24,642 nucleotides of DNA from Psammoneis japonica (taxonomy: Eukaryota), in assembly GCA_008632985.1 (NCBI GenBank), contig QPGO01000016.1:62001-86642 (forward strand), in the 5' to 3' direction. Of this stretch, positions 1-24,642 are shown one piece after another. The stretch's first letter is position 1, and each line of letters opens with the position of its first letter. Below the pieces are notes generated by a model. The model did not search any database and had not been told where the DNA came from. It saw only the letters and a list, made by a program, of their open reading frames with translations. Both the position numbers and the translations under genes were made by a program.

Positions 1-2215
1 CAATGCTCTTCGTTTTCGCAGGTCTCATTGTCGTAGCTGATTCATCCCTCACAAGCGAAGACACGGATTGACCAAGGAGATCAAGCAACCGAAGCTCTGT
101 TGCGCCCTTGACGAAAGTGTCTTCTGATGAGGAGAGACGCTCCAAAGCACTTCTCAAAACTAATTTTGCTCGAGAGAAGTGTCCTGGCGATACAAAGAAT
201 GGCATTCCAACATGAGTGAATCTCTGACGATTGCCATCCATGGTAGAGACTGCTTTCTCTCCATCGTTGGATATAAGCCTAAATACGTCGTACACAATGG
301 GATTGTCTCCGCAATCATTCGCATATTGAATGCTGCCATCATCATAGAAGGAGACGTCCGACAATCGGAAAAACATTGCCTCTCCCAGATCGGCAGCCTG
401 CTTTGCATTACGATCGGAAATTTCATCGTACGTACACAACTGACCGTACTTGGACAAGGCTTGAGCCGCCGGAAGGGTCGCAGTCCTTTCTGCGTGACTA
501 GCATACTCTCTGGCGGAAGCGCTCAGAGGGATGCGTTGGGAGGCATCTCGGAGAACTGCGTCGATTCCCACCGAACCAATGTGGCGGGTGTCGCCGTCTT
601 TTTCTTCCTCAAAGTGCCCGAGAGCATAGGAAAGACGATTCCTTCTCGTATCCAATTCCTCCAGCCGCTCCAGCAGCAGTGCTCGGCCACGAATGCGAGC
701 TTTTGGATTGGTAGCCTCGTCCAACACTGGCTGACAAAGCACTTTGACTCCGGCCAAACGCTCGCGAAGCATACAAAGTTCAGTCTTTGTGGGATGTCCG
801 CCAGAAAGATCTCGAGCGATTTGACGCAACTGCATTTCTCCCCAGTCTAAACGAAAGAGACGGCCCTCGAGTGTGTCTAGATCCACAACGACGGCCTCAG
901 AAACAGCGACTGAGCCATGAAGAACGGTGCCTGAACCGTCGTCAACCGTGACAACAACCTCGTCTGAGGTCGTCGCAAGAGGGGAAATTCCTAGCTCCTT
1001 CTGAAGCCAAATTTCGTATGTAATGCGTCCCTCTGCTTCTAAAGCTGTACTTCTTGGTATTGGTTCTGCGAGAGACAGGCCTTTCGGTAACGAAGTTACG
1101 CGAATAGAACAAAAGCCAGAGCTTTCCAGTAAATCGACCAGTCCTCCCGAAAGCCATTCGCTCAGTACTTCTTGTCGGTTTATGTAGTAGTACCGATCGC
1201 TGAGATATTGGCACTGCGCCGGATTGTGATGTTCACCAAAGGCAGCAATGCAAGTGTAGTGTGCGCGACAATTCAAGCCAGTCAAAAAGGACTGGAAAGC
1301 ATCACCGGCCGCTCGAGCCTTGTCGGTAGCAGCTTGACTGGTGTACCCCATAGGAGCAGCCGATGTGTCTTGACCATCTGTAAACAATAGCGTCGTCACA
1401 TCAACGGCACGGACCGCCACTTCCTTATCATAAAGCTTGTCAACCTCACGTTGAATGCATTTCTGGGCAAGTTCAAACGCCTTTTTAAAGTTGGTAAGTC
1501 CGGTTGGAGAAAATTTGGTCCTTAGTAGGTTCGACAAGTCAAGCACAGTTCGAGGTAGCGTCACCTCGGTTGCATCCGTATTGTAGACAATGGCAATCAG
1601 GGAAACGTACGGGTCTCGTAGAGTCTGATCGGTAAACACTCTTGCAAGTGCATCCACAACGAGAGGCCACTGCTCTCTCATGGAGTACGAGTTATCCAAA
1701 ATGGCTGCGAGTATCTTGCGGCGACGACAACCACGTTTAGCACCTCCAACCTCATCATTGGACGGGAATTGCCCACGAACGGCGCAACGCACAATGGCAC
1801 TGTAGTCTCCACCTCCCTGGCAAAGTGAAACGGTGCAAGGATGTACCTGTTTGTTATCGTTGCTGGAGTTTGCCTTTTGTCCAAACGATGAACGATCCTT
1901 ATCGTCGCGAGTATTATTTCCACCAGAGCTTGTTGTACTTGCGACGGCGGCAGCTCCCGCAGGTGGAGAAGATGTTTGAGAAGAAGCAACAGTAGTAGCT
2001 GAAGAGAGTCGGAGCTTACGAACGAGTCCTCGTGCTACCGCGGCCTGAACGGCGTCTCCATTGGCATCGAGTTGACCCTGTAAATCCCCCGCCTCAATGT
2101 CCTGGAGGTATTCAAGTCGTCCAGAACAACGCGACGCAATCAACTCGTGAAAGCATGGTTCAATATCCAGCTGCAAGAGCAGCTGTTTGAGATCTTTGCT
2201 TATTGTCAAAGTCAT
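1..2215 (-). CDS. von Willebrand factor A (vWA) domain protein with a possible N-terminal SAM-like helical domain; 3' end lies outside the window (>738 aa)
   Basis: Manual translation from ATG at 2215 (MTLTISKDLKQLLLQLDIEP...) stays open to base 1, so the ORF track omits it. MIDAS motif ILDNSYSM (~1679-1700), GLTNFKKAFELA (~1465-1500), TTLLFTDGQD (~1367-1395) and IAAFGEHHN are typical vWA elements. A Ser/Ala/Gly-rich linker precedes the domain. Confidence 0.85.
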   Translation of the reverse strand, partial: MTLTISKDLKQLLLQLDIEPCFHELIASRCSGRLEYLQDIEAGDLQGQLDANGDAVQAAVARGLVRKLRLSSATTVASSQTSSPPAGAAAVASTTSSGGNNTRDDKDRSSFGQKANSSNDNKQVHPCTVSLCQGGGDYSAIVRCAVRGQFPSNDEVGGAKRGCRRRKILAAILDNSYSMREQWPLVVDALARVFTDQTLRDPYVSLIAIVYNTDATEVTLPRTVLDLSNLLRTKFSPTGLTNFKKAFELAQKCIQREVDKLYDKEVAVRAVDVTTLLFTDGQDTSAAPMGYTSQAATDKARAAGDAFQSFLTGLNCRAHYTCIAAFGEHHNPAQCQYLSDRYYYINRQEVLSEWLSGGLVDLLESSGFCSIRVTSLPKGLSLAEPIPRSTALEAEGRITYEIWLQKELGISPLATTSDEVVVTVDDGSGTVLHGSVAVSEAVVVDLDTLEGRLFRLDWGEMQLRQIARDLSGGHPTKTELCMLRERLAGVKVLCQPVLDEATNPKARIRGRALLLERLEELDTRRNRLSYALGHFEEEKDGDTRHIGSVGIDAVLRDASQRIPLSASAREYASHAERTATLPAAQALSKYGQLCTYDEISDRNAKQAADLGEAMFFRLSDVSFYDDGSIQYANDCGDNPIVYDVFRLISNDGEKAVSTMDGNRQRFTHVGMPFFVSPGHFSRAKLVLRSALERLSSSEDTFVKGATELRLLDLLGQSVSSLVRDESATTMRPAKTKSI

Positions 2216-3118
2216 GGTTGTTATTTCGATTGGTTGTAGGTCATTCCCAAGTAGTGCGATTTCGATCGAAACTGTTGTGTTGCATTGAAGTTTGTGAAAG
2301 AAGTGTAAAGTGCGCAAATCGAGATTTCAGACGTGCGTGTGCAAGCATGATTCAGCATTCATTCACCGTAGCACGACTGATGATGGCACATCATGTTGTT
2401 TATTCAGACGCGACTCCACGTTTTCAAACGTGTGTATTCGTCCGCAATGTGGGCACGCTTTTCACACTGCTTCAGCATGCGATGCACGTGGTGTGCTGTG
2501 TCGTGAAAATTCACGCCAATCTCCGACGACTATCCAACGCATCCGCATCCGCCGATTTGTACAAAGAAACATTCTACCATCGACAAGGTGAGTGCAGATA
2601 GACTGATGAAGACTTATTGGACATCCTCAATCGAACATCCTGTGCTCAGTGCAAACTCTCCATTCTGGACAGTGCCAATTTATTGACGGGCGCAGTCGCA
2701 TCCGATGCCATGGCCGCCATCTTGGGAGTCTGCTTTCTGCTTCTGCCTTATTGTGCACGCACACTTCTACCGTATGCTGCCTACACCAATACGGACTACG
2801 GACGTGCGCACTGCTCGTGAATCATTTATCATCCATCCCCCGTGCGGTCCCTGGTCTGTGGAAATGGCGGGTTGCTGCTGAATGACGGGATGGTGCGAGT
2901 CCAACTCTCGATGCAGCTTTCATTGATCAGAGGGCTTAGCACTGGCTCAGCAACAAGAAAAGGATCTTGCCGTCCACATTTCCGGGTCATTCGAAAGAAC
3001 ATAAAAGATGGTTTGCTTGCTGCTCTAGCTGGCTGGCAGCAGCAAAGCAGAAACTGCACCATGACCAAGGACGAGGCAGAATGCTTGCAAGAGGCAACCA
3101 CTGTTGAAAGGAGAAATC

Positions 3119-4765
3119 TCAGCCAATGAAGCATTGCAGTTCATTTTGCTCATTGTGTGAGTGTTTGCCATTGCAGGGCCACACATCGAACTCGATGCTT
3201 GCCTGATGATTCTTGTGGATGGCGTTGCAACATTTGCACACGTCCCCGATGCTGACAACAGAACAGTCGAGGTTTCCATCTCCACAGCCACTGTTCTCAT
3301 GATGCCACAAGTCAAACTTGAGTGGCCCAGCACCGCTTTCCACAAGAGAATCAAAGTCCTGCGGTGACACACAATTTCCATTTTGAAGCTTGGATGCATT
3401 GATGAATGACAGATTGCCACACACTCATCTCGCCATTCCAAGATCCACACTCAGCACCAGAGTGTGCCAGTGAGCAGCCATTGAAACACCACATTCACAT
3501 GGAGCAGCAATGTCCTTTTCTGCTTGGTGTTCCTGATCATGACCATTTGCGAACATTGCCCAGCCACCATCTTGAACACCAATGTCCAATGCTTGGCCAC
3601 AGCAGACAGCGGATCAGCAGCAGCTCCAACATCCCACATGGGAGGATTGATGGGATGGCAGCCATTTTGAGCAAGACCTGCATTCTTGTGTTCCTCACAA
3701 GAAGCTCAAACTGCAGATGTGACTGTTGCAATGGAAGAGTCGCAGTTGGGGAGGACAGGGAGTTCAATGGTGGGATTGGGTGCAGAAGGCTTGGGAGTGT
3801 TGTTGTCATTGCATCCAGGAAAGTCGCAGCATCCCAAGCCAGCTTGCATCCATTTGGCATCACACATGGCAATGAGGGCATTGCAGAATGCTTGACATTC
3901 CATGGAATCTCCAAAGTGGAAGAAGTGGTGGCCATTGATCACATTGCCACTCATCTTGCAAAAGCACACATCATCAAATGCGAGACTTGTTCCTTGAGAG
4001 ATGAATGGGTCCGACTCGGCCTTGCATGTGCCAATCATTGCATTGGCACAGTGTTTTTCTTGGTGCAAAGGAAGATGTTTTGCAACTTCAATGAGGGGTG
4101 CTTCAAATGCAGAGTCAGGATCGGCATCGCGACAACTGGCATCACCAACTGTGAATTCGGTGACCCCGACATCACTGCATTCCTTGTCACAAACCTTGCA
4201 GATGACTTTACCTTTGTTGTCCTTGTCCATGTCAAGACAAGTTTCACCCATGATGTGCTGCATGTCAAAAGACATGTCAAAGCCACAGTTGTGCTGGAGC
4301 AAATCATTGTCCTCCAACGCGTCAATGAGAAGTTGCAAGTCAACAGCCTTGGATTTGGCGGGGCAAGAGAATGCCAAGTCATCAAAGGAGTCAAAACAGG
4401 CTGATGCAGTCACAGTTGTGCTGCAGCTGTCTCCTTCAATGCATCCAAGATGACAAGCCGCGTGTCAAGTCATGTTGGTCATGTTGACTTCAAACTTGGG
4501 ATTGGCAGCGAATGATGGTTCACAAGCTTTTGCACTTCCTTTTGCAAGACCAGTGCACTTGAGACAGGGCTTCTTGGGCTTGAGCACTCAAAAGGTGATC
4601 CAATGGATGGAACATGATGAGAGAGAAGTTTGTTTGTGAGTGAGCTGTGGCAAGCCACTTCATTCTCACTCTTGTCCAAGCATCGTCCAAGGACACTTTC
4701 GTTGATGCCTTGAGCAAAGGAAGCATCATTGTGGTTGCCAACACAAAGATGGTGGAGATCTTCAT
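3119..4765 (-). pseudogene. Decayed gene for a secreted, acidic, Cys-containing protein (family not recognised)
   Basis: Signal-peptide-like start MKISTIFVLATTMMLPLLKA at 4765, followed by collinear minus-strand fragments 3706-4413 and 3119-3424 with protein-like Asp/Glu-rich composition. These are interrupted by stops and frameshifts and contain no Tyr. Confidence 0.45.
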
Positions 4766-6589
4766 GACGCTGCCAAAGTGCTTGTGTTTCATTTCAGTTC
4801 ATGTTTTTTGTGTCATGATAAATGCCTGCAAGTTTGTTGGGTTCTCTTTGCTGTTCTCATTGCATGTTTGCTTCCGCACTTGTTGGTGGCACTCGGCACT
4901 GCTTCACAGTGCTTTGTGGGGTGCGTGGCGACAGCATGCCTTCCTCATGTTTTTTGTTTTTTGTCTCAGCATGCATGATGCATGATGCAAAAAATGGTGA
5001 TGCAGTGGCATCAGCAATCCAATGATGCCACAGAGGGAGAGCACATTTCTGCATGACACATGAGGAAATGGATCTTGGTTTTGATGCACCACATGGAGTG
5101 CCTGAGCACAATTGTCCGGGCAGAGACAAGAATTCTGTGATGAGGTCTCTGAAAGCACTCACTCAATCAAGTCATTCTTGACTGCATGAATGGCATTGGC
5201 GTGTGTCTCCAACAGTTTCATCAAGTTCGCCAAATAAATGACAAGGGTGCAAGAGTCTGTTTTGAAGCTTGGACACTTGCTGTGTCCCTGGAGCACTTTG
5301 CTTCATCCCACCAGCCACCACCACACCAGGTGGCAGTCCTTGGTGCAAGGTTTTGGAGACCTCAAGCACTGCTCAACTTTGTTGAGACTTGAGCAAGGGC
5401 AACTTGAGCAAGGACACCTGCATTGAAACACAATGATGGCTCTCCATGCTGTGAGAATTGCGGCCCCCCACCTTTGTTCATTTTGCTTTGTCAACTCCTT
5501 GCTCATTTTGCAGTTGTTGCCTGCTGGACTCCAAGGTGCAGCAACTTGCATTGCATGCTCAATGAGAAAGCCACTTGAATGATTTTTTCTCTCAGAAGCT
5601 TGAGTCAAAGCCATGCACACCGCTGCTCTAGAGTGGAGCGCAACTCCAAAACCAGTCGATTTGGTGCAGCCATGACCAACAACAACAAAAACTGCTTCAG
5701 TTGCTGGCAGTGTTCCCAGCCGTGTGGTGCAAGATGAGCAGAAGCATTTTAAATGAATTGCTGACATTAACTCAAGATTGGAGTGTGGCCACACCATGCT
5801 CTCCAGTGGCTGAAAAGACTCGCCGATCATTTTGAAGTGTGCCAATTGTCATTGTGGGTTCTGCTGGGTCAAAAAAGAAAAAGTGTGCATGACAGCAGAA
5901 GAAACTGTGGCTGGTGTTGTTGCAATCTGATCTTTGAGCTTGTGCATCTCATGGGTGCATCAACCTTGAAGTTGGATGTGTCCAAGCTCTTTTTGGCCTC
6001 CACTGCTGTGTGGGCACAACTCCACATTGAAACATTGTTCTGATGCTCATTGATTTTCACAACCAATGTTGTCTGCAGCAGTGGCACCTTTCATCTTGAT
6101 TTGTTGTGGCAGGTGCATGCAGAAATTCTTTTTTTTGCATTGGCGCACAGCAGCCAGCAACAAACATTGTCACCCCCCCAAAAAAGGTTCAAGATGAAGC
6201 ATCACAAAAACATCATCAAGATCAGACACAATGACATTTTCTTGCTGAACAGCTTAAATTCTGCCAAGTTCACTTCTGCTCACCTGAGAACTGCTTGCAT
6301 CTCAGAAAAAAAGCTCCCAGTGCAAGAGAATCTGGGATGGAGCCACGCGATTCAGCTCCTGTGTAGAACAGGTTGAGTGAGCTTTTGCATGCACTGTGCC
6401 CGTGGCTGGCAGAGCAAGAGCAGTGGCAAGAGAACTGTGGATTGGCTGAGAGGCAAGAGAGGTGGTCATGAGAAATGGAGTGCTGCATCATTCAGCTTCC
6501 TGTGTTGTCGCTGCTGAGTCACCCAAGAGAGGGAGTTGATGAAACAGCCAAAACACAACTGGCCAACTGGCAGTGTGCATTGCCAAAAC

Positions 6590-8430
6590 AATGCACCAGA
6601 TGAGCCTTGCAACACTCCACCATTGTGTTCCCTGGGTTCCACCAGAGATTGTTGCACTGGTTGGTTGGTTGTGTCATGGTGTTCTTTCTCTGAGGAGACA
6701 GGAGTTTTTCTGCTCTCACTCTGGCACAGCTGAAGTGACTGGCTGGTGAGCACCACTGCATGCTTTTCAAAACTCCACCACCACCCTCAAAGTGTCCTCA
6801 GGTCTTCCCCTGCAGATCTTTGATGCCTTTGGCCTGCAGCTCATGGGTTGGTTGGTTGCATCAAGAGGTGCCCTTTCACTCTGGAGCAGGCAGGAATTTT
6901 CCTCCTCTCATTTTGGCATGAATTGAGTGTCTGGGAGCTGGAGCTGCAACAGACAAGCCTTGCAACACTCCACCACTGTTCTCCAAGTGTTCCCTGGGTT
7001 CCATGGGAGACCTTCAACAATGCCCTCAGAAAGCAGTCATTTGGTTGGTGGGTTGCATCAGGGTGTCCATTCACTCTAGAGCAGTTTGGCAGTTTTTCAG
7101 CTTGTCTCAATCTGGCATGAAGCAAAAGTGACTGGGGGCTGCAACTGCACCAGATGAGCCTTGCTGCACCTGAGCACCAATCTCAAAGTGTTCCCCAGGT
7201 TTCACTGGAGAAATTCAATGCCCTCCAGCCTGCAGTTGTTGGGTTGGTTGGTTGTTGCGCCACCAGGGTGTTCTTTCTCTGAGCAGTTGTTGGGCTTTTC
7301 TGCTCTCACTCTGGCATGCACTCAGTGGTTGGTGGCAGCATGCACACCAGATGGGCCTTGCAACACTCCACTGCCATTCTCACAGTGTTCCCTGGCTTCT
7401 TCTGAAGAGCTTCAGTGCCCTCAGCATGCAGCAGTTGGGTTGGCCAGTTGCATGATGTGTTCTTTTTCTCTGAAGAGTCAGGAATTTCAGCTCTCACCAC
7501 GTCATGGAGTGAGTGACTGGGGGCTGCACTTGCACCAGATGGGCCTTGCAACACTCCACCACCAATCTCACAGTGTTCTCTGAGTTCATGTGAAGACCTT
7601 CAATGCCCTCAGCCTGCAGTTGTTGGGTTGGTTGGCTGCATCAGGGTGTTCTTTCTCTGAAGAGTCAGAAGTTTTTCTGCTCTCACTCTGGCATGACAAC
7701 TGCACCAGATGAGCCTTGCAATGCTCTGCCGCTGTTCTCAAAGTGTTTCCTGGGGTCCACAGGAGACCTTCAATGCCCTCAGTTTGCAGTTGTTGGGTTG
7801 TTTGGTTGCATCAGTGTGACCTGTCACTCTGGACACAGGAGTTTCAGCTCCTCTCACTCTGGCATGGATCAAGCAATTGGTGGCTGCATCAACTGTGCAA
7901 GATCAGCTTTGCAATGCTCGCCACTTTTCTGGGAGCATTCCTTTGGTTCCAAGGGAGCATTTCAATGCCCTCAGCCTGCTTTTGTTGGGTTGTTTGGTTG
8001 CACCAGCATGTCCTTTCACTCTGGAGTTAGGAGCTTCAGCTCTCACTCTGGCATGGACAACTTGGTTGGTGGCTGCAACTGCACCAGATGAGCCTTGCAA
8101 GAGTGCTCCACCTCTTTCTTCAAAGTTTTTTTAGCTCCACAAGAGACCTTTGGTGCCCTCAGTTGCAGTTGTTGGGTTGGCTGGTTGCACAAGGGCCATC
8201 TTTCATTTTGGATGCAGCAGTTTCAGGTCTCACCCTGGTGTGGATCAAGTGATTGGTGGCTGTGACTGCACCAGGCCCAGATGAGCCTTGCAGTGCTCCA
8301 CCACTGTTCTCAAAGTGTTCCCTCAAATCCACAGGAGACCTTCAATGCCCTCAGTCTGCAGTTGTTGGGCTGTTTGGTTGCGTCAGTGTGGTCGTTTCAC
8401 TCTGGAGTCAGGAGCTTCAGCTCTCACTCT
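6590..8430 (+). repeat. Tandem array A: ~10 diverged units of ~170-200 bp
   Basis: Anchor CCAGATGAGCCTTGCAA-like motif recurs near 6597, ~6765 (degenerate), 6950, 7150, 7347, 7535, 7705, 7900, 8084 and 8277. Each is followed by CTCAAAGTGTTCC...CTTCAATGCCCTCAG...GTTGTTGGGTTG...CACTCTGG. Confidence 0.9.
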
Positions 8431-8767
8431 TGCTTGCTCTTTAAGCTGACAAAAGTGCTTTTCTTGGCACTCTCCTCCTCCCATTGGAGGGTCACCATTG
8501 GGCAGAAGACAGACCTCCCACACATCACAGATGGTCAACCTCTTGAAACAAAGCTTCAATGTTCACACACAATGACTAAAATTGCAACATGCTTCTTCCG
8601 TGAGATGACCACCATGACTCAGAAGAAATGGAGCATCCAAACAAAGAAGGGGCAGACCATCTGGGCTCAACCTCAGACACACTCCTCCACCCCTCCTTGA
8701 TTTGGAGACATTCAGTGAAAGACGAGTCTCACCCTGGACATGTGTGCCACCCAAGTCTGGAACAAGT

Positions 8768-9225
8768 CAACAGCATTGCATGCTCAATCCCAAAGAAGCG
8801 TGGCAAGGTTGTCAATTTCCACAATTTGGCAGCACAAGAAAAAATGGACCTTGCAACCAATCAATTTCAACAAGGAGTGTGCAAACGTCTCAGCATGTGG
8901 GCATGAAGAACTTTGCTGATCGCAACAACAAAGGACATGAGAGTGTGAGTCATGTGCCAAATCTTGTCCCATGCCTCCCAAAGGAAACCACTGATGATTT
9001 GGTTGTGGCTCTGCTTGCCATGAAACATGTGCATGGCAGGAGATTGACAAAGGCAATGAGCAGTGCAATGAATGTGCAATCACAATGGGGGCAATGGCAT
9101 CAGCAAAGACAGATTGGTGACAACAGTGTTTGTTTCACCAAAAGTTGAAATTGTGTGGTGAGCAAGATGGCCATTCATTGTTGAGGCTGGCACCATTCTT
9201 TGTGAATGTGCAGAGAGACTGTGCC
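8768..9225 (-). pseudogene. Hypermutated paralog of the 5' region and upstream sequence of the gene at 15282-17518
   Basis: Aligns by eye with 17197-17662. GCTCAATCCCAAAGAAG..GTCAATTTCCACAATTTGG matches GCTCGATCCCAAAGAAG..GTCAATTTCCATAATTCGG, and TTGAAATTGTGTGGTGA is shared. Confidence 0.85.
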
Positions 9226-9493
9226 AACCACAAAAACCCATGGAATGCATTCAGTCACTTGCAGGCTCTGGGCAGAAACAATCAAAGGCCGAGACTGATG
9301 TGAAATGTGTCCACAATGAACATTGGCCATTTCAGAGCAATGTTCTCTGCAGGTGCAATGAAGTTGAGAAATTCAAGGTTGCTTCCACAGAGCCCAGCAT
9401 TCCACTTGCTGCTGTGATGTGTGAAACACTCAAGTGCACTTTCCCATGTCACACTGGGCTGCACTCAAAGTCCAAGCTCATGCATCAATCTGA

Positions 9494-10400
9494 GTGGGGG
9501 AGACTGAGGTTTGTCATGCAGTCAAATCTTGGAACACAGGCACAGACGGGCTTGGCATCGAGGAGTTCCACAAGCTTTTTGGTGCCCACACTTGCTCCTG
9601 GCAGCAGAATCACCTGGTGGAGACCAACAACCTTGGCCATGACACTCTTTTCAGGATCAAGAAAGGCAAGGATGGATCTTTGACATCAAAGCTCATTGTT
9701 TTTCACATTGAGCAGGCTTTTGACTTTGTGGCACAGCACCATGGACACACAGGTGGTCATCTCAAGTTGGGTCACACACTCAATGACATGAAGAAGAAAA
9801 GTTTTGCAATGTCGCAGAGATGCTGGTTTCTCACTTGACCTTTGCCCCACTTGCAGCAGCAAGGTGCAGCCATCTGTGGCAAGAGCTCAAGGTGCTTGAG
9901 TCCCTGCCATGAGATCATGAGCTCCTGGAGTTTCCAAGACCATTTCCAGAATGACTGGATGGGTTGCCAAAAAAACTCACACCAGTTTTGCCATGGGACC
10001 CTGACCCCCCAACCATGAAGTGGCCTCATGGCTTCAAAAGATTGCTGCACGAGATTGATCTGAACTGCAGGTTGCTGAGGAGTTTTTTGCCACACTCACT
10101 CTTTGACCAGCTGCTGCTTTGTCAGCCACACAGACAAGAACAAGAAGGAGTTCACAGCAGAGCAAGTGACCAAAGACATCCAGGAGCTCAGCCCGTGCTT
10201 CAGCACTGTCCAGGTGAGGCACCAGGGGTCATCTGTCAAGCACTCCAACTGTGTCCAGTCAAAAACAGCCATTGCTTTGCCAGTGAAAGAGCAGCACTGC
10301 AATGACATCTCTCAATGCAACAACCGACAAAGGCAAAAATGAGTGCTCATCTTAATTTCATGTGTTTCACATGGAACCCAACGAGCTTCTGACCACTGCT
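9494..10400 (+). mobile_element. Degenerate Ginger/KRBA2-SCAND3-like DDE integrase (transposase) remnant
   Basis: Across frameshifts: HHCC zinc finger (FDFVAQHHGHTGGH ~9720-9760; LDLCPTC ~9834-9854), first catalytic-Asp region SWSFQDHFQNDW (~9923-9958, cf. F(R)D(R)FQxD), MKW/LMASKDCCTRL (cf. KW..KDH.T), second Asp HTDKNKKEFTA (~10127-10160, cf. HTDNGKEF), and RHQGSSVK (~10217-10240, cf. QGSVE). Confidence 0.7.
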
Positions 10401-11414
10401 CCTCTCTCACAAAGCTGTCAACTCACCAAGAATGTTGCTGAGCACTGTGTCATCATTGGAGGGGGCTACAAGAGGAAGATGATCCTGGCAGGTGAGGTGA
10501 CTGAGGAAGAGATTTTGGAGTCCCCAGTGCAGAGGTTGGCCAAGGGCATGTGGCTCCTCCTGGAGCTGCCATCATCAACCATCTGTCTCCTGCTTCAGAG
10601 ACAAGTGCTGTTGATGGGGACTTCAAGGCAGAAGGCCCTGAGCTGCAATCCAACACAGTGGGCCCACATGCTGGTGCAACAAGCAGTGCCCTTGCTTTGT
10701 TCTCTCTAACAAAGCAAAGTGCTGGTGACACATTGACGCCAGCCAACATCAGAAGCTGTGGTGCTGCCAAAAGAGGCCCATGTGTCCAAGGAGATGAAAC
10801 AGGGCAGCAGCATGGCACCACAGACAATTCCTTCAAAGAAGAGGAAAGTGGGCATCGTGGAAAAGCCAACCAAGTCAATGCAAAATAAAGAGCAAAATCC
10901 AATAAGTCCAGAGCTGATGGCAAAGCATGGCAGCAGCAGCAGCAGCCAGCCATTGAATGGAGCCAGAGACGTCTTCGTCTGCCTGCATGCCGCACCGGCA
11001 CCGGGCACCGGTGTCAGTATTTTTTTCGGCATGACGATGACAAAGCTCGCCGGATTGTGATCATCACATTAAGTCGACATTTTGCATTGGCGTGTAAAAA
11101 GGAACCTTTTTCGTGGTACGTTGAGTGTTGTTGATCTTCTCAGAAAAAGCATTTGATTACAACAAAGTATGCTTTTGATCTGCGACGCATACTTCTAATT
11201 CTACTTTTCATCTGTTTTTACGTTGGTTCGCGACGTGGTTTGTACCAATATGAAGTTGGGCTCCATGCGCTCGAACTACACTCCTTCCAATCACACTTCG
11301 GCATCAGGCCTCAGACCGGCGGACGCATTGTGCCTTATAACATGAGATTCAAGATGTTCCGCAATCAAGGTTTCTCGTACAATCATTTGTTCATTCCTGT
11401 TGCGCCATTCGCCA

Positions 11415-12641: not shown

Positions 12642-14287
12642 GACTACCGGAACATGCTGGTTGGGGCCGTTCATGGATGCGCTGTGTGATTCTTCAATTT
12701 TGCCGGGTCGGTTGTTACTGCCCCATGGACTTTTTGGCCGCGGATGGTGCTATGCAGGTTGCTCTTTTTGTCAGAGCTTTTCCATCTCGCCCAAGTTGTT
12801 GGGTTTCGTCGAGGATATTGTACGCATGTCTCTGGATCTTGGGTGAATACTCGCATACGGAGGAAACCGATGTGGAGGCCTTTGAAACTACTTCCATCAG
12901 TTAGGTCCGACCCCATCCTTGATCACCAAGGAAGAGAATCATGAAGAGAAGCACGAAGGAGGAGAGGTCCCAAAACGATTTCTAAGAACGTTGTGTCTGT
13001 CGACGTTACTTATGCGACCCAAACCGTCTACTCCGAAGCCTTCTGCCGGACGAGTCGGATAATACTCCTCATTTGCGCAAGATGGCGATTGGTGGCGACG
13101 TCTTTTCTTGGGAACCATTCTAGCGTCCTGCCTGACCAAGTTGTTTTTGTGGGCTATGGATCAGCCTCAAATGGTTGCATTGGCGATTAAGAAAATGACG
13201 TCCGATACGCTGCTTATCATGTGCGGCGAAGTCAGAATATCCGAGGCCAGCGTTTCAGGTCAGCGTCCCGCTGTGGCTGATTGTTCGGAACGCATTACAC
13301 TATGCTGCCGTGCGCTATTGGGCTCCAAGGCTTGTATTTTACTCAAGGATACTCTCCTGAATGATCGCAAAGTAACGTTTGCCCAGTTTCTCAAGACGCT
13401 CAGGGACAAAGAAACCACAGATGCTTCGGCCGACGACGAGGACGACACAGGCATACTGGCCACGGCGCAGCTTGACGACTTGATCCACTTTCGTCAGCTG
13501 TATTCCATGGCTGTTCAGGGTGGTGATGCCGACTTTGATGGCGGAGACGATTTGGAACGTGCCACTGGGTATGCCGGTGCCAACGATTTGCTTAGTTCCG
13601 AACTCAATCATGTCTACCAACTCAGTGGGTTTGCGGATAATGTCTACGCGGAGGCCTTTGTCACGGTCCATGATTATGACATTGTTTTGGAGATTCTGGT
13701 CATCAATCGTACTCCCAACACACTAGTCAACTTTACGGTGGAGCTTGCCACGATGGGTGACATGAAAATCGTCGAACGCCCGCAGTCTCAAAATATTGGC
13801 CTTCTCGATCAGATCACCGTCCGAGCCTCCATCAAGGTCTCCTCCACCGAGTCGGGGCACAACTTCGGCACCATTGTCTACAAAGACACAGCGACATGAG
13901 AGAAGGGATACATCAATCTCAATGGTATTCACATGGACATTATGGGTTACACCCCCCCCGGCAACTTGTACCGACGAAGCCTTTCGATCCACCAGAGCGT
14001 GCCCGTGTGGGATCAGTCCTTATGCGTACCTTTAGCGCATTGGTGCATAATGTCTATTTGCTGATACAACTCGAGTTTCGCAGTCTTTGAACCACCAACT
14101 AACACACTCGTGCTTTTTTTGTTCTTGTAGTGTCTTTGGCGAAGACGCCCTCGTACATGTTTCGGTCGAGAAGGAGGACGACAATGACGGAAAGTTGGCG
14201 GGGTACATACGGATTCGCTCCAAGACACAAGGGATTGCTCTTAAATTTGGGAGATCGCATCATCAGCGTTCAGAGATCCATGCCTGA
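12642..14287 (+). pseudogene. COPB1: Coatomer subunit beta (beta-COP) pseudogene: C-terminal half with deletions
   Basis: Recognisable blocks DYRNMLVGAVHGCAV*, MDFL..DGAMQVALFVR, CLWILGEY, TYATQT, DDLIHFRQL, YQLSGFADNVYAEAFVTVHDYDIVLEILVINRT, IKVSSTESG, INLNGIHMDIM, PATCTDEAFRS, SVFGEDAL and GYIRIRSKTQGIAL. In-frame TGA at 12687-12689 and 13897-13899, plus frameshifts and missing segments. Confidence 0.9.
14098..14130 (+). other. Intron 3' end (branch point, pyrimidine tract, acceptor) retained in the beta-COP pseudogene
   Basis: ACTAAC (~14098) ... TTTTTTTGTTCTTGTAG ends at 14130, directly before T-GTC-TTT-GGC (S/VFGEDAL). Confidence 0.65.
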
Positions 14288-15281
14288 AACCAAGCAGTAA
14301 AGCAAATGATCGGGATAAGGAACACCGAGTGTATTTTAAACTAAAAAATACCACTTCTTTAGCATGACACTGCACGAACTAGCCCCACTGTTGTGTATTG
14401 ATCCTACTCTCTAGAGATGCTTCTCTCCCTCGGTTTGATTTCCCGGGCTACTACTAGGGTCGATCGCTTCCTTGACGCTAATAGGGAACGGGCCTTACAA
14501 GGAAAAGACCCGTGGAATTGGGCTATGTGGCTCAAGCCTCTACTAGCAATAGATATGGTTTGCGATAACAAGATTATAGGGACCCATTTTAGAACAAGAA
14601 GATTGAAAAGCTACATGAATACGAACATCAAAGTTCTATACATTTATTCTAGACGCCACGGAATGTTATCCTTCGTTTACTACCCCAGAGAGGAGCCGCT
14701 ATCCTTCCTGGCGCATAAACAAAGTCATTCCGTGACGCCAATACTTACCTAGCAATATCCGTTCTTTTACAATTCATTCTCCACGTCCGAAATAAGTAAG
14801 GATTTGGTTCATTGACTACCGCGGGTCTTGAACAAATACAGAGTTGTCGTTTCGCATTGAAGCACCAATCATGCCTGGTACACATTTTGTTCCGGAAAAC
14901 ATAAGTCGCGGGGCGGGACCCACTGTTACTTGAACCTTGGTACTTCAAAAAAGACTGACTGCCGCATCGTTTCAAGTCGGGTTGTCGAACCGGGGTATAG
15001 GGTGTATTTCTATGTTGACAAAATAAAGATGAAAAGCAACGTCAGTAAACAAATCTCGAATGAAAAGAAAAATAGACACGAAATCGACTTACATTGGGGG
15101 TGCATTCGAATGTAACGTAACACAACGAACGCACCCCATGGTATTGAATTGCACGACAAACTCGTGCAATGTTGGCGAGTCTTTGATGCGCACAAAAGCT
15201 GTATTGTACCGTGACATGGAATCGAGAGATGCCCCCATGCATGCTCGATTTCCTAGGGTACAGAACAAGCAGTTAATGAGT

Positions 15282-17518
15282 CTAGCGGCGACTCATGATC
15301 CTTGCGGATCTACGCACGACACGCCCAGTGTTGGACGAAAGAAAGAGACTGCCAGTGGCTTGACGGAGCCTAGGCGAGCGTCTCAATGGGACAGGATGGA
15401 CTTTTTCCTCCTTGTTTCTCACAACTGTAGCAAAAGGAACAACACCCTCCTCCACCACTGGATCATCGTCGGCAGCCATATCCAGAACGTCCAATGCATC
15501 GTCAGGCTCCTCGGCTACTACTCCAAGAACGACTTCCTCTTCATCGTATGCAGTAATTGCAGGATCGTTTATGGTGTCAGCAACAGCAGGTTCCTCAATG
15601 ACAGGAGCGGGAATGATTGCCTCTCCGTCGATTGTTGCCTCGTTCATATCAACTGCAGGATCGTCCAAGGCTTCATCGTCAGGAACCATATCCAGAACGT
15701 CCAACGCATCGTCAGGCTCCTCGGCTACTACTCCAAGAACGACTTCCTCTTCATCGTATGCAGTAATTGCAGGATCGTTTATGGTGTCAGCAACAGCAGG
15801 TTCCTCAATGACAGGAGCGGGAATGATTGCCTCTCCGTCGATTGTTGCCTCGTTCATATCAACTGCAGGATCGTCCAAGGCTTCATCGTCAGGAACCATA
15901 TCCAGAACGTCCAACGCATCGTCAGGCTCCTCGGCTACTACTCCAAGAACGACTTCCTCTTCATCGTATGCAGTAATTGCAGGATCGTTTATGGTGTCAG
16001 CAACAGCAGGTTCCTCAATGACAGGAGCGGGAATGATTGCCTCTCCGTCAATTGTTGCATCGTTCATATCCACTGCAGGATCGTCCAAGGCTTCATCGTC
16101 AGCAGCCATATCCAGAACGTCCAACGCAGGCTCCTCGGCTACTACTCCAAGAACGACTTCCTCTTCATCGTATGCAGTAATTGCAGGATCGTTTATGGTG
16201 TCAGCAACAGCAGGTTCCTCAACGACAGGAGCGGGAATGATTGCCTCTCCGTCGATTGTTGCATCGTTCATATCCACTGCAGGATCGTCCAAGGCTTCAA
16301 CGACAGGCTCCTCTTCTACAGCAACAGGAACGCCCATCTCCGCATCGTCTGGTGCGTCGTCAACAGTCACAGTAGGTTCGTTCAAGGCTTCCCAAGGCTC
16401 TTCAACAACATCAGGAACTACTTCCTCCACAGCATTTAGATTGTTGTCCGTGTCCTCAGCCGGTTCCATATCCGAAATATCCGAGGCATCGTCAGCAATG
16501 GGGTTAATGTCCGTAGCCTCAGCGGGTCCAACGGCCGCTGTAGTCCGTACCCAGCCATGCCAATGATCACACCAAAGATCAGAGTCCCAGTAATGAATAC
16601 TTTCTTCCTGACCCGCATCAAATTCGAGCATCGCCACAGCCAACTGCTCATCATTCAACACGGGTATCACACGGGTGTAACGTGCGCGTCGAAGAACGCG
16701 TTTGGCAGGCACACGGGTTGGATTGGGAGGAGCGTCACCAACGCAATGGTTCTTAAGCATCATTTGGTCAGGTTTCCACCTGACATGCCTTTCTACTGGA
16801 ACAGCAAGAGCCTCGGCCGGTTCCATGGCCGCTTGAGTCCGCACCCAGCCACGCCAGTGATCATACCTTGGATCCGCATGACACTCACGAATGTATCGGT
16901 CTTGTTTCCGGTCAAACTCAACCAGCGCTGCGGCCAATCTCTGATCATTCAATACGGGTATCATATGGGTGTAGCGAGGGATTCGAAGAATTCTTGGAGC
17001 AGTCACGCCGGTTGGATTGGGAGGAGCGTCACCAACGTAATGGTTCTTTAGCATCATTCGGTCGGGTCTCCATTTAACAAGACCGCCACCAAATAGTTTT
17101 GCTTCAAGAGCAGCAGCCACGGGAACAGAAACCGCAAGGGAACGTAGAGGGCATTATACATGGTCCATACAACCACTGCAACCGCGAGAGTAGCCGCAAC
17201 CGCATCGCACGCTCGATCCCAAAGAAGAGTCGACAGGTCGTCAATTTCCATAATTCGGCGGTACAAGAAATAGACAATCAACTTCAACGAGGAGTATATG
17301 AAGATCACAGCATATAAAGCGAGGAGAGCTGTACAGACTCCTACAGCGAAGGACGCCAGTTCTTCAATCATGCATCGGATCCCGTCCATTGCAACGCTCG
17401 AGAATATCCAAAGTTCCCAAAGAAACCCGCTGACGATTCGGCCGTGGTTCTGCTTACCGTGAAATACGCGTAGCAGAAGATTCATAAAGAGAACGAGTAG
17501 TGCAATATATGCAATCAT
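15282..17518 (-). CDS. Probable single frameshifted gene: N-terminal hydrophobic/TM region (17054-17518), duplicated ~98-aa domain, four acidic 70-aa repeats and a basic RRSxR tail (15282-17120)
   Basis: The 154-aa hydrophobic ORF overlaps the 612-aa ORF. The latter has only a GTG start with a TAA just upstream (~17155), so one indel would fuse them. C-terminus is LRRSPRL...VRRSARI. Family not recognised. Confidence 0.55.
15463..16299 (-). repeat. Coding tandem repeat, 4 x 210 bp, near-identical
   Basis: TCCAGAACGTCCAA recurs at 15481, 15691, 15901 and 16111. The last copy on + has a 6-bp deletion. The frame is preserved (70-aa acidic unit). Confidence 0.95.
16515..17077 (-). repeat. Older internal duplication, 2 x ~294 bp
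   Basis: GATTGGGAGGAGCGTCACCAACG occurs at 16721 and 17015. The protein repeats W(R/K)PD.MMLKNH.VGDAPPNPT...IPVLND...DHW.GWVRT. Confidence 0.9.
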
Positions 17519-17767
17519 AATGGGGGTAGTGGTATCAATAAAGATAGATTGGTAATAACAGTGTTGGTTTCAATGCAAGCAAAACTTGAAATTGTGTGGT
17601 GATCGTGACGGTCGCTCGTTGTTGTGGCTGGTAGCATTCGTGAATGCGTAGAAACTGTACTGGAAAAGCCCGTAGAGAAGCCGACCGTCAGTCACGCTTT
17701 TCAAGTTTTGACGGGAAGTTGCGGCACGTTTGCATTCGGTTGCTCGTAGGCTCTACACTGTAGCTAG

Positions 17768-19719
17768 CAGCAGGAAGAAACGAAAATCAGAGGTCATCAA
17801 AGCATTCCAAGAGATGCCTGTGGCCCATGGAAATGTTCTGAAACACAGGGAGAGGCAACACACCGGCCTTGAGCGCCTTGGAGCTGATGTCTTTGGCCAC
17901 ATTGGCAAGAACCCATCCCATGCACAAAGTCAAAGGTGTGCTGCAACAAGAGGCAAGGTGTGCTGGGCTTGATGCACTTGTCTCCCACCACCTCAGCAAA
18001 CAACCCAGGTCATCTGCACACAACTCTGCCTTTGATGCAGCTGGCACTTGCTGTCAAAGTGGCTGTGCAGAAATGTGCAAAATGTGGGTGAGACTCATTG
18101 CCAAGTTTGAGCCCACTGCGGCAAGAGAGGGAGACCCTTGCAAGTCAGAACTTTGGAGGTCTCATGACCTGTCCACCCCCTGAGCTGTGGGGCAACAACA
18201 AAGTTTAGAGTGCCAGTGATTTGTTTTTGTGCATGGATCAGACCCAAGCATTTGACACGGATCAAGTGATTGGAGGCTGCAAGTGCAGCAGATGAGCCTT
18301 GCAATGCTCCGCCACTGCTCTCAAAGTGTTCCTTGGGTTGTTCCAAGGCAAACTTCATCGCCCCAAGCCCTCAGTTGTTCAGTTGGTTGGGCGGTTGCAT
18401 CAAGGCCCTCTTTTGCTTGGACTCAGCAGCTTCGGGTCTCACTCACTCTGGAGTGGGTTGAGTGACTCTGGCGGCTGCAACTGCACCAGACAAGCCCTTG
18501 CAACACTCCACTGCCATTCTCAAAGTGTTCCCTGGTGCCCACCAGAGTCCCTCAATGCCCTCAGCCTGCTTTTGTTGTGTTTTTTGGTTGCATCAGTGTG
18601 TCCATTCACACTCTGGAGTCAGGAGTTTCAGCTTTTTCACTCTGTCGTGGATCAAGTGATTGGTGGTTGTGACTGCACCAGGCCCAGATGAGCCTTGCAA
18701 TGCTCCGCCACCATTCTCAAAGTGTTCCCTGGGGTCCACAGGAGACCTTCAATGCCCTCAGTTTGCAGTTGTTGGGTTGTTTGGTTGCATCAGTGTGTCC
18801 GCTGACTCTGGAGTCAGGAGCTTCAGTGCTCACTCTGGCGCGGTGGTGGATCAAGTGATTGGTGGCTGCAACTGCACCAGACGAGCCTTGCAATGCTCTG
18901 CCACTGTTCTCAAAGTGTTCCCTTGGGTCCACAGGAGACCTTCTCAATGCCCTCAGTCTGCATCTGTTGGGTTGTTTGGCTGCATCAGTGTGCCCTCTGA
19001 CTCTGGAGTCAGGAGCCCCCCAGAGCTCTCTCTCTCTCTCTGGCATGGATCAAGTGATTGGAGGCTGCAAACACAGCAGATGAGCCTTCCAATGCTCCGC
19101 CACTGTTCTCAAAGCATTCCTTTGGTTCCAAGAGAGCACTTCAATGCCCCCAGCCCTCAGTTGTTTGGCTGGTTGCGCCAGGCGCCAGGGTTCTTTCTCA
19201 CTTTGGACTCAGCAGCTTCAGGTCTCACTCTGTCATGGATCAAGTGATTGGTGGCTGTGACTGCACCAGGCTCAGATGAGCCTTGCAATGCTCCGCCACT
19301 GTTCTCAAACTGTTCCCTGGGGTCCACAGGAGACCTTCAATGCCCTCAGTTTGCAGCTGCTGGGTTGTTTGGTTGCACCAGCCACCAGCCACCAGCCAGT
19401 GTGTCAATTGACTCTGGAGTCAGGAGTTTCAGCTCTCACCACTCTGGCACGGATCAAGTGATTGGAGGCTGCAAATGCAGCAGATGAGCCTTGCAATGCT
19501 CTGCTGCTGTTCTCAAAGTGTTCCTTGGGTTGTTCCAAGGGAGCACTTCAATGCCGCTGTGTTCCAAGAAGGAATCAGGAACCTTGAAGGGGGGGGGTTG
19601 GAGGCGGAGAAGAACGATTTCTTGTGTCATCATCCGAACAAACGCATCAACACATCTCACTTCGACAAACTGCTGTTGCCCACAGCGTCCACTCTTCTCT
19701 CTTCTTTTGCAAGCTCCCT
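17768..19719. other. TpA-depleted hypermutated domain 2
   Basis: Only one TA seen (TTAG at 18206) in ~1.95 kb, whereas both flanks contain normal TA. CpG is reduced but partly retained. Confidence 0.9.
18258..19555 (+). repeat. Tandem array B: ~7 units of ~190-215 bp, same family and orientation as array A
   Basis: GATCAAGTGATTGG(A/T)GG anchor at ~18260, (18460 degenerate), 18650, 18849, 19048, 19238 and 19452. Each is followed by a GATGAGCCTTGCAATGCTCC...TCAAAGTGTTCC-like motif. Confidence 0.92.
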
Positions 19720-19732
19720 TTACCATTAAAAA

Positions 19733-20143
19733 ATGAGTCTCAATAACATATCCAGCTCTCTCATTACCCCCACGCTTGCGTCCTTTGCAGCGTGCCAAGT
19801 TACTGGGTTTCTTTGGTACGGACCCTTGTTTGGAAAGCTCTGGATGAAAAAGATGAAAGAGGATGATCCTACGTTTGATGTTCACGGCTCGACTCCAGTG
19901 CTTGGAGCCGCTGTCACGTGGTTGACGTCGTCTGCCATGTTTTCATGTTTGGTATCCATGACGGGTGCTGCCAAAGGTGCGGAACTTGTTTCGCTCGCGG
20001 GAACGGCGTGGCTGGGCTTTACCGTGCCCGGTCACGTCTTTGCCGTCCTATTTGAAGGCCGAAACGTGACTGTCAATGTTTTAGGCTCAGCCTACATTCT
20101 TACCTCCCATCTTATAATGGCTGGTGTTCATTATTTGCTTTAG
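19733..20143 (+). CDS. DUF1761-like small multi-pass membrane protein (136 aa)
   Basis: GFLWYGPLFGKLWMK motif typical of DUF1761, four hydrophobic segments, ATG preceded by AAAAA, normal dinucleotide content. Confidence 0.75.
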   Translation: MSLNNISSSLITPTLASFAACQVTGFLWYGPLFGKLWMKKMKEDDPTFDVHGSTPVLGAAVTWLTSSAMFSCLVSMTGAAKGAELVSLAGTAWLGFTVPGHVFAVLFEGRNVTVNVLGSAYILTSHLIMAGVHYLL

Positions 20144-20965
20144 AAGTCAGCTGGGCTCTTATTGCGGGTATATTCGTGGCTGCCAAGTCGGTCGGAGCTC
20201 TACCAGCCAGATATTTGCGAGTCGACGATAAGGAGACTTACTGTATTACGTTTGCATAATCTATCTGTGAATGCATTGGTTGGCGGTAATTACTGCGAAA
20301 CAAAGTGAAGAGGAATAAGGAATAATGGTTTGAACAACAGGATAGATCAAGATTCATTCCATTATAGCAGTATTTATCGTGCTCTGCCAAGAATTGCACA
20401 TCCTCATGAAGGATGACTTCTTTGTTGTTATCATTGATTTATTGAGTGGCGTTATCAACCGAGCAGGACCATTGTTCTCAACGCAAATTGGCCATCTGCG
20501 CTGCCAGAGACACTGTGCACCTTCTTTTTGACAGCACGCTCCGATACTTGTACATACTTCTAATATCTTGATCGACCCAGTTGTTCCAAAACACTCTCAA
20601 ACACTTCCTTCCGGGTGTAAGCACCGGATGCGCTGATTTCAGATTAGTATGGTCCATGGATTTTTAACTTTTCGAGTAAAGGATTTTTCGGGTTTGCCAA
20701 GCTAGAGTCCGCAATTCGGTTTTAGTATCTTGTGCTTTTTCACCTACTGGTATGCACGCACAACGGCCGGACAGAGAGCTACCGTATCATAGGCCGGAAC
20801 GCGTAACGGTTATGAGCACTAACTCAATTTTTGAAAACCGCGAGCTCCATCCAACAAAACAAAAACCGCACGCATCTCGGTATTTCATTCACATCATCAT
20901 CAATCAGCAGAGCACAACTGAACCAGTGGTGTGTCCTTCACTATCATTTTTTGGCGCTTCATACA

Positions 20966-23142: not shown

Positions 23143-23311
23143 ACCACAACTGCATAGAGAGCTTTAAGATAGTGAACGATCATGATTTAAATGTTGCACC
23201 ACACTTTCCGCTCGAAGCTAACTGACAACATGTGTCCCCTCGATGCCATTCGAGACTCACTAACGTCTCGATTGCATTCTGTCCCACCTGATGTCTAATG
23301 CTTCCAGGTGC

Positions 23312-24394
23312 TTAAAAGACACCGATTCGAAAGGCGAGCCTGATTTGTTTCAAAGCTGTGACCCAACTTCCAATGGCAGGTTCGGGCACCTCAGCAGCGT
23401 TCTCGGGTTCTTCCCAGGGTTTCAAAACTGGCAGAGAATCTTGCAGAACGTTCATCAAACGCATTGACGTGTCAAACACTTTCTTTCCCTAACATTTTGC
23501 CTTCCACTCAATCGCAGAGCGACTGTCAGACAGAATTGGGTTCAGAAACGAAACCTTTTCGAAAAGAAGGTTCGTCTGAGTCTTCGCTGGCGTAGTCAAG
23601 CGTGTCGACAATTCCAAAACTCTCTTCCCCCAATGTCCAACGCTCGATTTGATCTCAGAGAGATGGCCAGACAAGATTGGGTTCCGAAAAAACAGCAAAA
23701 AATTGTCGCGTTCCTGAAGAACGAGTGCCTGAGTCTGGATTTGCGTGATGACGTTGTTCGAAATTTCGTCTGCAAGTTTCCGCCAAAGCTGAAACGCCGC
23801 CGACTTGACATCCGAAAAGATGCTGTGCGTGTCCGACAAGACGGCCAACTGGATCTCCAAAAATGTCGTGAACGTGTCTTGGAGCACGACTGACTTGGTC
23901 TCAACCGTGCTGTTGGGTGTGGTGTTGTGAAAGAGTTGCTGGAGGCTGCTGTTGGAGTCGCCATTGTTGTCCTGAACAAAATGTTCACAGACACAATGCT
24001 CGTTGGCGTCTTCTGCTGGTGCAATCATGGGCATGGCATTGCGCAGGAGGCCTTGGACGCGACTCGGAGACTTGTCGCCATCGTCAAAATGAGCGCAAAA
24101 GCTGGAAATGAGGATGGCGTTTTCGAAGGGAACAGTGTTGGGAGCGCCATTGCTGGTGATGTCATGGCAGCAGCTGGAGGTGGTGTCAACATCTGAGCAA
24201 CGGGTGTTGTCCAAAAACTTGCACGGGAGCTCTTGGTCAATCATGGCGATGCTGTCGGTCACCACGGTTGCCTCGATCGACAAGGCGCTGACGCCGCGCT
24301 TTGCCGCATCAACAAACGAGGCAGAGAGAGGGCTGATGATGACACCAGTGCTCATGGCGGCAATGACAGCAAGGACAAAGTTCATGATTTTCAT
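23312..24394 (-). pseudogene. Tyr-free gene relic with a signal-peptide-like N-terminus and one internal stop
   Basis: Starts MKIMNFVLAVIAAMSTGVII at 24394. Internal repeat NPILSGHLSEIKSSVGHWGKRV versus NPILSDSRSAIEWKAKC*GKKV shows that the TAG at 23489-23491 sits at a Trp position. The frame continues to TAA at 23312-23314. The 377-aa ORF has no Tyr. Confidence 0.55.
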
Positions 24395-24622
24395 GATGGA
24401 CTGTGAGCTGACGAGCAATTCAGAAATTGTGAGAGCACTCAAACAAGAAGAGATTCTGTCTGCAAGGGAGGTGCCGTGGCACAAGACACACAGAAATCTG
24501 CGTGGCGTGGGCCGTTTCTCCATTGCATTTGAGTTGGAAGAAAGTTTCGCGATGGTTGTTTTGTCGCAGATGGTGCACCTGTCGAGCTTGGATGATCGTG
24601 CTGTTCCACGCAGCTGGCACAT
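23595..24622. other. TpA-free, CpG-retaining domain 3
   Basis: No TA seen in ~1.03 kb, and only two more back to 23315, while CG dinucleotides are abundant. Confidence 0.9.
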
Positions 24623-24642
24623 TAATTCTAGAGTGCGAGGCT

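Follow-up and report, generated by a model that had tools for sequence, protein, structure and literature searches.

The window analysed here, a stretch of 24,642 nucleotides, carries three domains from which the dinucleotide TA has been almost completely erased, leaving 6 TAs outside the context YTAR against ~388 expected across the three domains together. A mutator that acts at TpA on DNA itself and is targeted regionally is the reading we favour, at a probability of about 0.8.

Three domains of TA erasure

Counting of dinucleotides along the window delimits the following domains:

3027..10885, no strand: domain D1, TA- and CG-erased, occupying the interval between two genes in divergent orientation (dinucleotide counts)
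17766..19720, no strand: domain D2, TA- and CG-erased, between the intact gene X and a DUF1761 gene (dinucleotide counts)
23171..24642, no strand: third domain, TA erased, CG normal, running off the window (counts of TA outside YTAR)

With expected counts taken from the frequencies in the rest of the window, D1 contains 16 TAs (307 expected) and 71 CGs (458 expected), together with 918 CAs (604 expected) and 868 TGs (572 expected). D2 retains a single TA (76 expected) and 28 CGs (114 expected). The third block, counted as 23594-24622, holds no TA (40 expected) and 62 CGs (60 expected). Its start moves to 23171, with the domain extending to the window end, when only TAs outside YTAR are counted, and over these 1472 bases its 86 CGs correspond to normal density. 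The observed/expected ratio (o/e) of TA is 0.00-0.03 in the domains, and that of CG is 0.15-0.20 in D1 and D2. The summed frequency of TA, CG, CA and TG measures 0.238, 0.225 and 0.249 in the domains versus 0.247 outside, and GC content is also unchanged. This constancy of the pyrimidine-purine step totals indicates that TA and CG became CA and TG.

The erasure is regionally confined, to three discrete domains with normal neighbouring DNA. Positions of every TA and CG reveal edges that are sharp to ~100 bases, and the ends of D1 and D2 lie 12 to ~700 bases from the flanking frames. Division into 500-base bins gives a bimodal distribution of TAs outside YTAR, with 0-2 per bin inside the domains and 5-31 outside, edge bins excepted.

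The top TA density of the window (o/e 0.8-1.0) is found at 14001-14750, an AT-rich stretch at the convergent 3' ends of the coatomer and X genes that includes 10 YTAR sites in 500 bases.

Flanking genes and content of the domains

Genes of normal composition flank the domains, and one long open frame lies inside the third:

2..2317, minus strand: normal gene to the left of D1, with a weak VWA_2 match (Pfam)
13108..13899, plus strand: normal gene to the right of D1, C-terminal exon of coatomer beta (PF07718, E = 1.5e-45)
19733..20143, plus strand: normal gene encoding a DUF1761 protein, with its start 12 bases beyond D2 (PF08570, E = 8.8e-20)
23489..24622, minus strand: 377-codon frame without Tyr, inside the third domain, for which no relatives were found (open frame, searches)

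The window also encodes a SAP and DEAD-box helicase, whose named relatives, among the matches listed, are all diatoms (Cylindrotheca, Nitzschia, Amphora, Pseudo-nitzschia and Chaetoceros), with a best identity of 62-63%. Named relatives of the coatomer piece are stramenopiles, comprising a diatom transcriptome, a brown alga and a raphidophyte. Judged from its sequence, the host is a stramenopile, most likely a diatom.

D1 and D2 are made up of a satellite-like repeat, the broken copy of a gene and sequence in which no coding is recognisable. Across the three domains, neither viral nor transposon protein domains were detected, with none of 98 stop-to-stop ORFs of at least 60 aa reaching the Pfam cut-off, and viral contigs contained no relatives of the 377-aa frame or of one D1 frame. 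A protein atlas gave no usable match for either of these two frames, searches with the 377-aa frame returned no homologue, and Rfam and tRNA scans yielded nothing. A foreign origin of the target, as in Bigelowiella natans, was not observed here, a weak negative since heavy mutation could hide the origin; one target is a paralog of a host gene.

In the 377-codon frame (23489-24622, minus strand), TA is absent in all reading frames and CpG is normal, and a signal-peptide-like stretch lies ~77 residues in. The frame may represent a gene caught early in the process. Conversion of TpA to CpA or TpG cannot create an in-frame stop and removes TAA and TAG, so long open frames in these domains are no evidence of function. 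CA spanning codon position 3 to 1 occurs in this frame at 0.185 per codon, versus 0.075-0.148 in four normal frames, an excess at a mostly silent position that hints at selection during the process, the numbers being small.

That selection rather than mutation produced the domains, with TA and CG avoided because they are read by a nuclease, a TA-targeting transposase or UpA/CpG-sensing RNA decay, is very improbable. The CA excess of the 377-codon frame, at a junction where T to C is mostly silent, does suggest purifying selection among outcomes. Among the contents of the blocks, however, are a pseudogene with a broken frame, tandem repeats that have degenerated and DNA with no coding that could be recognised, and their depletion is near total, affects both strands and every frame, and has its edges at gene borders; selection of such strength on junk DNA is implausible.

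A broken gene copy records the substitutions

The window holds two copies of the first part of gene X, one inside D1 and one beside D2:

8768..9258, minus strand: X_D, a hypermutated and broken duplicate of the first part of the gene family next to it (alignment)
17197..17695, minus strand: X_N, the intact paralog of X_D, of normal composition (alignment, ORF)
17054-17518, minus strand: ORF of X_N, 154 aa, hydrophobic, without family (open frame)
15282..17120, minus strand: rest of the intact X gene, a 612-codon frame (two 294-nt repeats; four 210-nt acidic repeats, 96% alike)

Local alignment of X_D (8768-9258) with X_N (17197-17695) spans 524 columns, 58 of them with gaps, and 351 columns are identical (75% of the ungapped ones). 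The examples and coordinates of a preliminary description of this pair proved right, with the homology extending ~33 bases past the end that it had given. Its statement that nearly all alignable TAs are CA or TG in the 8.8-kb copy is borne out by tabulation against X_N: all 24 aligned TAs are altered, 22 of them to CA (11) or TG (11), with one AA and one GA. CG changes alongside, as it had also described, with 29 of 29 CGs altered (15 to CA, 11 to TG, 3 to others), so that 26 of the 29 aligned sites read CA or TG in X_D. The pairwise alignment with dinucleotide tabulation that it had suggested thus separates TA, with 0 of 24 kept, from the remaining 14 dinucleotides of X_N, which are 41-80% conserved. 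At a conservation of ~62%, the chance of keeping 0 of 24 TAs is ~8e-11 and that of keeping 0 of 29 CGs is ~7e-13.

The two copies differ by 115 substitutions, including 81 transitions, 48 of which fall within a TA or CG of X_N; X_D also departs from X_N by indels and 61 other substitutions. Not one CA or TG of X_N stands opposite a TA or CG in X_D. Once the letters are reduced to purine or pyrimidine, the two copies are identical over stretches of 36, 46 and 59 letters, and self-comparison of the window recoded in this way revealed no paralogy beyond this pair and the tandem R arrays described below. X_D makes up 0.5 kb of the 7.9-kb D1, and the depletion also covers otherwise unrelated D1 sequence; the pair is a sample of a wider regional feature.

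Codon-by-codon comparison reveals that the amino acid is kept in 57 of 107 aligned codons. The five aligned Tyr codons of X_N are replaced by His (4) and Cys (1) in X_D, whose frame carries one CGA to TGA stop and is broken by indels of 1, 2 and 4 bases. X_N lies ~70 bases outside D2 and has normal composition. Among 1.84 billion representative proteins, its 154-aa product gave one weak match (E = 2.7e-5) over a 27-residue stretch, and the 612-codon frame of the intact gene is without a Pfam family. A metagenome scan with a 17-base word common to both copies, a word too short for that collection, revealed no related DNA of the family: its 120 loci included none homologous to the window by blastn and none with a TA o/e below 0.3, and are chance matches.

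Two repeat blocks of normal composition lie in the intact gene on the minus strand. Four 210-nt tandem repeats at 15463-16332, 96-100% alike, encode an acidic repeat, and two 294-nt repeats at 16618-17079 are 79% alike.

CA and TG are equally frequent (11:11) and interspersed over the 490 bases of the alignment, in agreement with action on both DNA strands, as the preliminary description had proposed. Editing of RNA followed by reverse transcription, in which A-to-I hyper-edited transcripts are copied back into the genome, is improbable. One RNA strand would be expected to yield one outcome, not an 11:11 mixture within 490 bases. Poly(A), terminal repeats and inverted repeats are absent, and the domains end at the gene borders of their neighbours. 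ADARs have a loose sequence preference, unlike the near-complete editing of TA only that this route would demand. In its favour stands the 5' U preference described for known adenosine deaminases acting on RNA (Mettrop et al., bioRxiv 10.64898/2026.01.13.699255).

Tandem arrays and the direction of change

Self-comparison identified two related tandem arrays inside the domains:

6592..8433, no strand: R array 1, ~10 tandem units of ~190 nt, inside D1, 66-74% identical to array 2 (self-comparison)
18251..19555, no strand: R array 2, ~7 tandem units, inside D2 (self-comparison)

Sixteen of 18 units were used for alignment, two edge units being dropped. In this alignment CA and TG occur together in 28 column pairs, and in 11 of these each is carried by two or more units; the seven other double-transition pairs give 0-21 (0-5 by the stricter count). 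Some units retain CG or TA at the mixed columns. The coexistence of CA and TG implies that units were hit independently, on either strand, after the arrays had formed.

Internal evidence supports change from the state of X_N to that of X_D, with TA and CG lost in the damaged copy, in keeping with the preliminary description, which had placed the 17-kb copy nearer the ancestral state. This evidence comprises the background composition and 154-codon frame of the 17-kb copy, the domain-wide depletion, the constant step totals and the repeat-unit columns. The reverse polarity, in which TA and CG were gained by the 17-kb copy (much as repeat-induced point mutation, RIP, generates TpA in fungi) and the 8.8-kb copy represents the older state, is so improbable that we give it almost no weight. 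It needs two opposite transitions, C to T for TA and A to G for CG, each occurring only at CA/TG, and it must accommodate a frame that is open in the 17-kb copy and broken in the 8.8-kb copy. It also fits poorly with a depleted state that spans 7.9 kb of unrelated sequence and with R units that keep CG or TA where other units show CA or TG. On its side, the o/e of TA and CG in X_N (0.8 and 1.2-1.3) slightly exceeds the normal mean of the window (0.59 and 0.99), and neither the 1.84 billion representative proteins nor the metagenome scan provided an outgroup for formal exclusion.

YTAR sparing and separation of TA loss from CG loss

The TAs that persist in the three domains are concentrated in YTAR, with 20 in this context and 6 in others, compared with 75 and 459 in the normal part of the window (Fisher p = 6e-12, odds ratio 20.4). 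In the third domain, YTAR TAs are as frequent as expected (8 versus ~8) and only one other TA is present (~50 expected); in D1 and D2, YTAR TAs are reduced to about a fifth. Residual CGs in the domains display no such flank preference. The TA process therefore reads beyond the dinucleotide, and YTAR, which is the same on both strands, is a poor substrate.

A strict single-strand motif, in which only an A before a pyrimidine is hit (TAY), fits only partially. Such a motif predicts CA alone at RTAR sites, where X_D carries 9 CAs and 4 TGs opposite X_N, and the third domain has an excess of TGR as well as of TGY, contrary to the strict model.

TA is lost without loss of CG in the third domain (23171-24642) and in 165 bases of D2 (19555-19720). 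The normal CG content of the third domain indicates that TA loss and CG loss are separable. The simplest reading of these sequence patterns would be a fast TpA mutator and a slower CpG decay, both operating in the same silent chromatin.

At its right end, D2 regains CG at ~19555, ~165 bases before TA (19721), and the TA-erased zone comes to within 12 bases of the DUF1761 start codon; a tract of 8 G is located at ~19591. Within D1, the part at 3027-5900 keeps ~3 times more CpG than that at 6400-10850, with equal TA loss in both. D1 may thus be composite, its parts differing in age or methylation.

Accuracy of the sequence

Contigs of the public run X1 match the window without a single differing letter over three segments: 2500-6619, 4.1 kb that cross into D1 from the left; 10677-11169, which spans the point where D1 ends; and 19491-21000, which does the same for D2. 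These are k-mer contigs at a depth of ~60-63, from the same sample as the assembly and possibly from its very source run. Their identity to the window indicates that accurate reads carry the domains and three of their edges. This excludes assembly or polishing error, and, as run X1 is possibly the source of the assembly, it does not amount to independent replication. Contigs of a second run, X2, whose kind is guessed, are absent on 3117-10520 and 17925-19158 and cover the genic parts, a pattern that is not evidence of silence.

On some long-read platforms, modified bases lead to miscalls that are systematic and depend on context. If the DNA were heavily modified (5mC, modified T or A), miscalling during sequencing or polishing could have produced false CA and TG, and the confirming run comes from the same sample as the assembly source and is perhaps identical to it. 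Such an artefact is nevertheless very unlikely: k-mer contigs at a depth of ~63 match 4.1 kb of D1 and three domain edges with 0 differing letters, X_D differs from X_N by indels and the 61 other substitutions as well, and methylation miscalls predict neither the sparing of YTAR nor a third domain with normal CG.

Summed contig depth in run X1 is ~420-1850 over part of the first R array (6819-8052) and ~1000-1400 over the intact X region (16691-17924), compared with 63 over the left of D1. Some contigs join units of array 1 to units of array 2. The sample probably contains extra copies of the R array and of the X_N region.

Proposed mechanism

We propose a mutational process that acts directly on DNA and targets defined tracts of chromatin, whether silent, non-genic or repeated. 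It would convert the T:A pairs of 5'-TpA-3' to C:G through A to G changes on either strand, giving TG or CA, and would go on until almost no TA remains, halting within ~100 bases of neighbouring active genes. TA within 5'-YTAR-3' would be largely spared, the preferred site having a purine before TA or a pyrimidine after it. A second, slower process would remove CpG (CG to TG/CA) in older or more strongly silenced domains, most simply by deamination of putative 5-methylcytosine in methylated chromatin. X_D, a duplicate of the first part of a lineage-specific gene, would have been destroyed inside such a domain, and X_N, just beyond the border of the next, would have been left untouched.

The most probable candidate enzyme is a DNA-acting, zinc-dependent adenine deaminase of the TadA/ADAT2 type, which would deaminate adenine to hypoxanthine, pairing as G. 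TadA and ADAT2-ADAT3 act on tRNA in the context U33-A34. The T that precedes the target in TpA matches this context. We infer the TadA/ADAT2 class, but the pattern would be no different if an oxidised or otherwise modified thymine mispaired with G.

Silent chromatin or small RNAs may provide the targeting signal, and the process may serve genome defence. The domains show no viral or transposon hallmark, so defence against foreign DNA finds no support here. Run X1 shows the left 3 kb of D1 as apparently single-copy, and repetition is therefore not an evident trigger.

Tentatively, and at somewhat less than even odds, we entertain a broader proposition: diatoms may possess a saturating, DNA adenine-editing genome defence, independent of cytosine methylation, that erases TpA (except YTAR) from silenced genes, pseudogenes and satellites. 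Under this proposition, the defence would be shared with chlorarachniophytes, an old SAR trait and a natural source of a context-specific DNA adenine deaminase. If it exists, it would remove Tyr codons, TAA/TAG stops, TATA boxes and AATAAA signals while GC content is kept.

Comparison with known systems

A search of the full-text literature for TpA-directed hypermutation returned only a preprint on Bigelowiella natans (Mettrop et al., bioRxiv 10.64898/2026.01.13.699255) and no diatom report. Our finding is a new case, in a second algal lineage, of this very recently described hypermutation. The text of the preprint describes TpA hypermutation of integrated giant-virus and virophage DNA; in mutation accumulation, two viral regions gained 231 mutations, 230 of which changed A to G or T to C, every one at TpA, and the mutation rate in viral regions was ~1000 times background (10.64898/2026.01.13.699255). 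The B. natans genome contains 124 clusters of TpA-poor, CpA+TpG-rich windows, and the authors propose an ADAT2-like adenine deaminase acting on DNA, citing relatives of TadA/ADAT2 reported to deaminate DNA in amphioxus and Trypanosoma (10.64898/2026.01.13.699255). Its main text leaves CpG, flanking bases and diatoms unmentioned, and its supplements may hold flanking contexts (10.64898/2026.01.13.699255).

As far as that text describes the B. natans system, the two cases share transitions that are almost confined to TpA and yield TpG and CpA. In both, targeting is regional, clusters of windows combine a deficit of TpA with a gain of CpA+TpG, and many of the genes affected are unannotated. They differ in host (here a stramenopile, most likely a diatom; there a chlorarachniophyte) and in degree, erasure being saturated here (TA o/e 0.00-0.03) whereas the viral region of B. 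natans has a value of 0.45. No viral or transposon domain was found in our domains, and the DNA hit includes a paralog of a host gene and a satellite-like repeat. CpG is also lost in two of the three domains and YTAR is spared, again unlike what the preprint text describes. The long-term genomic footprint in B. natans is only moderate (10.64898/2026.01.13.699255), whereas this window, from another major algal lineage, presents the end state: blocks of kilobase size, essentially free of TA, beside normal genes, with a paralog pair that reads out each substitution. Three points are testable, namely that TA loss and CpG loss are separate processes, that YTAR sparing constrains the recognition site of the enzyme, and that targets need not be recognisably viral.

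CpG decay results from deamination of 5-methylcytosine in methylated DNA. Our domains resemble it in the conversion of CG to TG/CA (26 of 29 sites in the pair) and in the scarcity of CG in D1 (71 of 458) and D2 (28 of 114), but it explains only half of the signature, as the third domain and 19555-19720 lose TA with CG intact. The likeness to TadA and ADAT2-ADAT3 lies in the U/T that precedes the target adenine; in place of their tRNA, the proposed substrate here would be algal chromosomal DNA.

RIP of ascomycete fungi changes C to T at CpA, creates TpA, lowers GC and hits both copies of a duplication. As in RIP, selected DNA of the window has been inactivated irreversibly by transitions that are dense and tied to a dinucleotide context, and the compositional domains have sharp edges. 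RIP itself was rejected as an explanation, since TpA is erased rather than enriched and the 17-kb copy of the pair has normal composition. In this window TpA has been lost, GC stays the same and one of the two paralogs has escaped. If confirmed genome-wide, the process would amount to a genome defence that resembles RIP but has the opposite polarity, in algae that dominate ecologically and have genetic tools, and would point to a natural enzyme that edits adenine in DNA.
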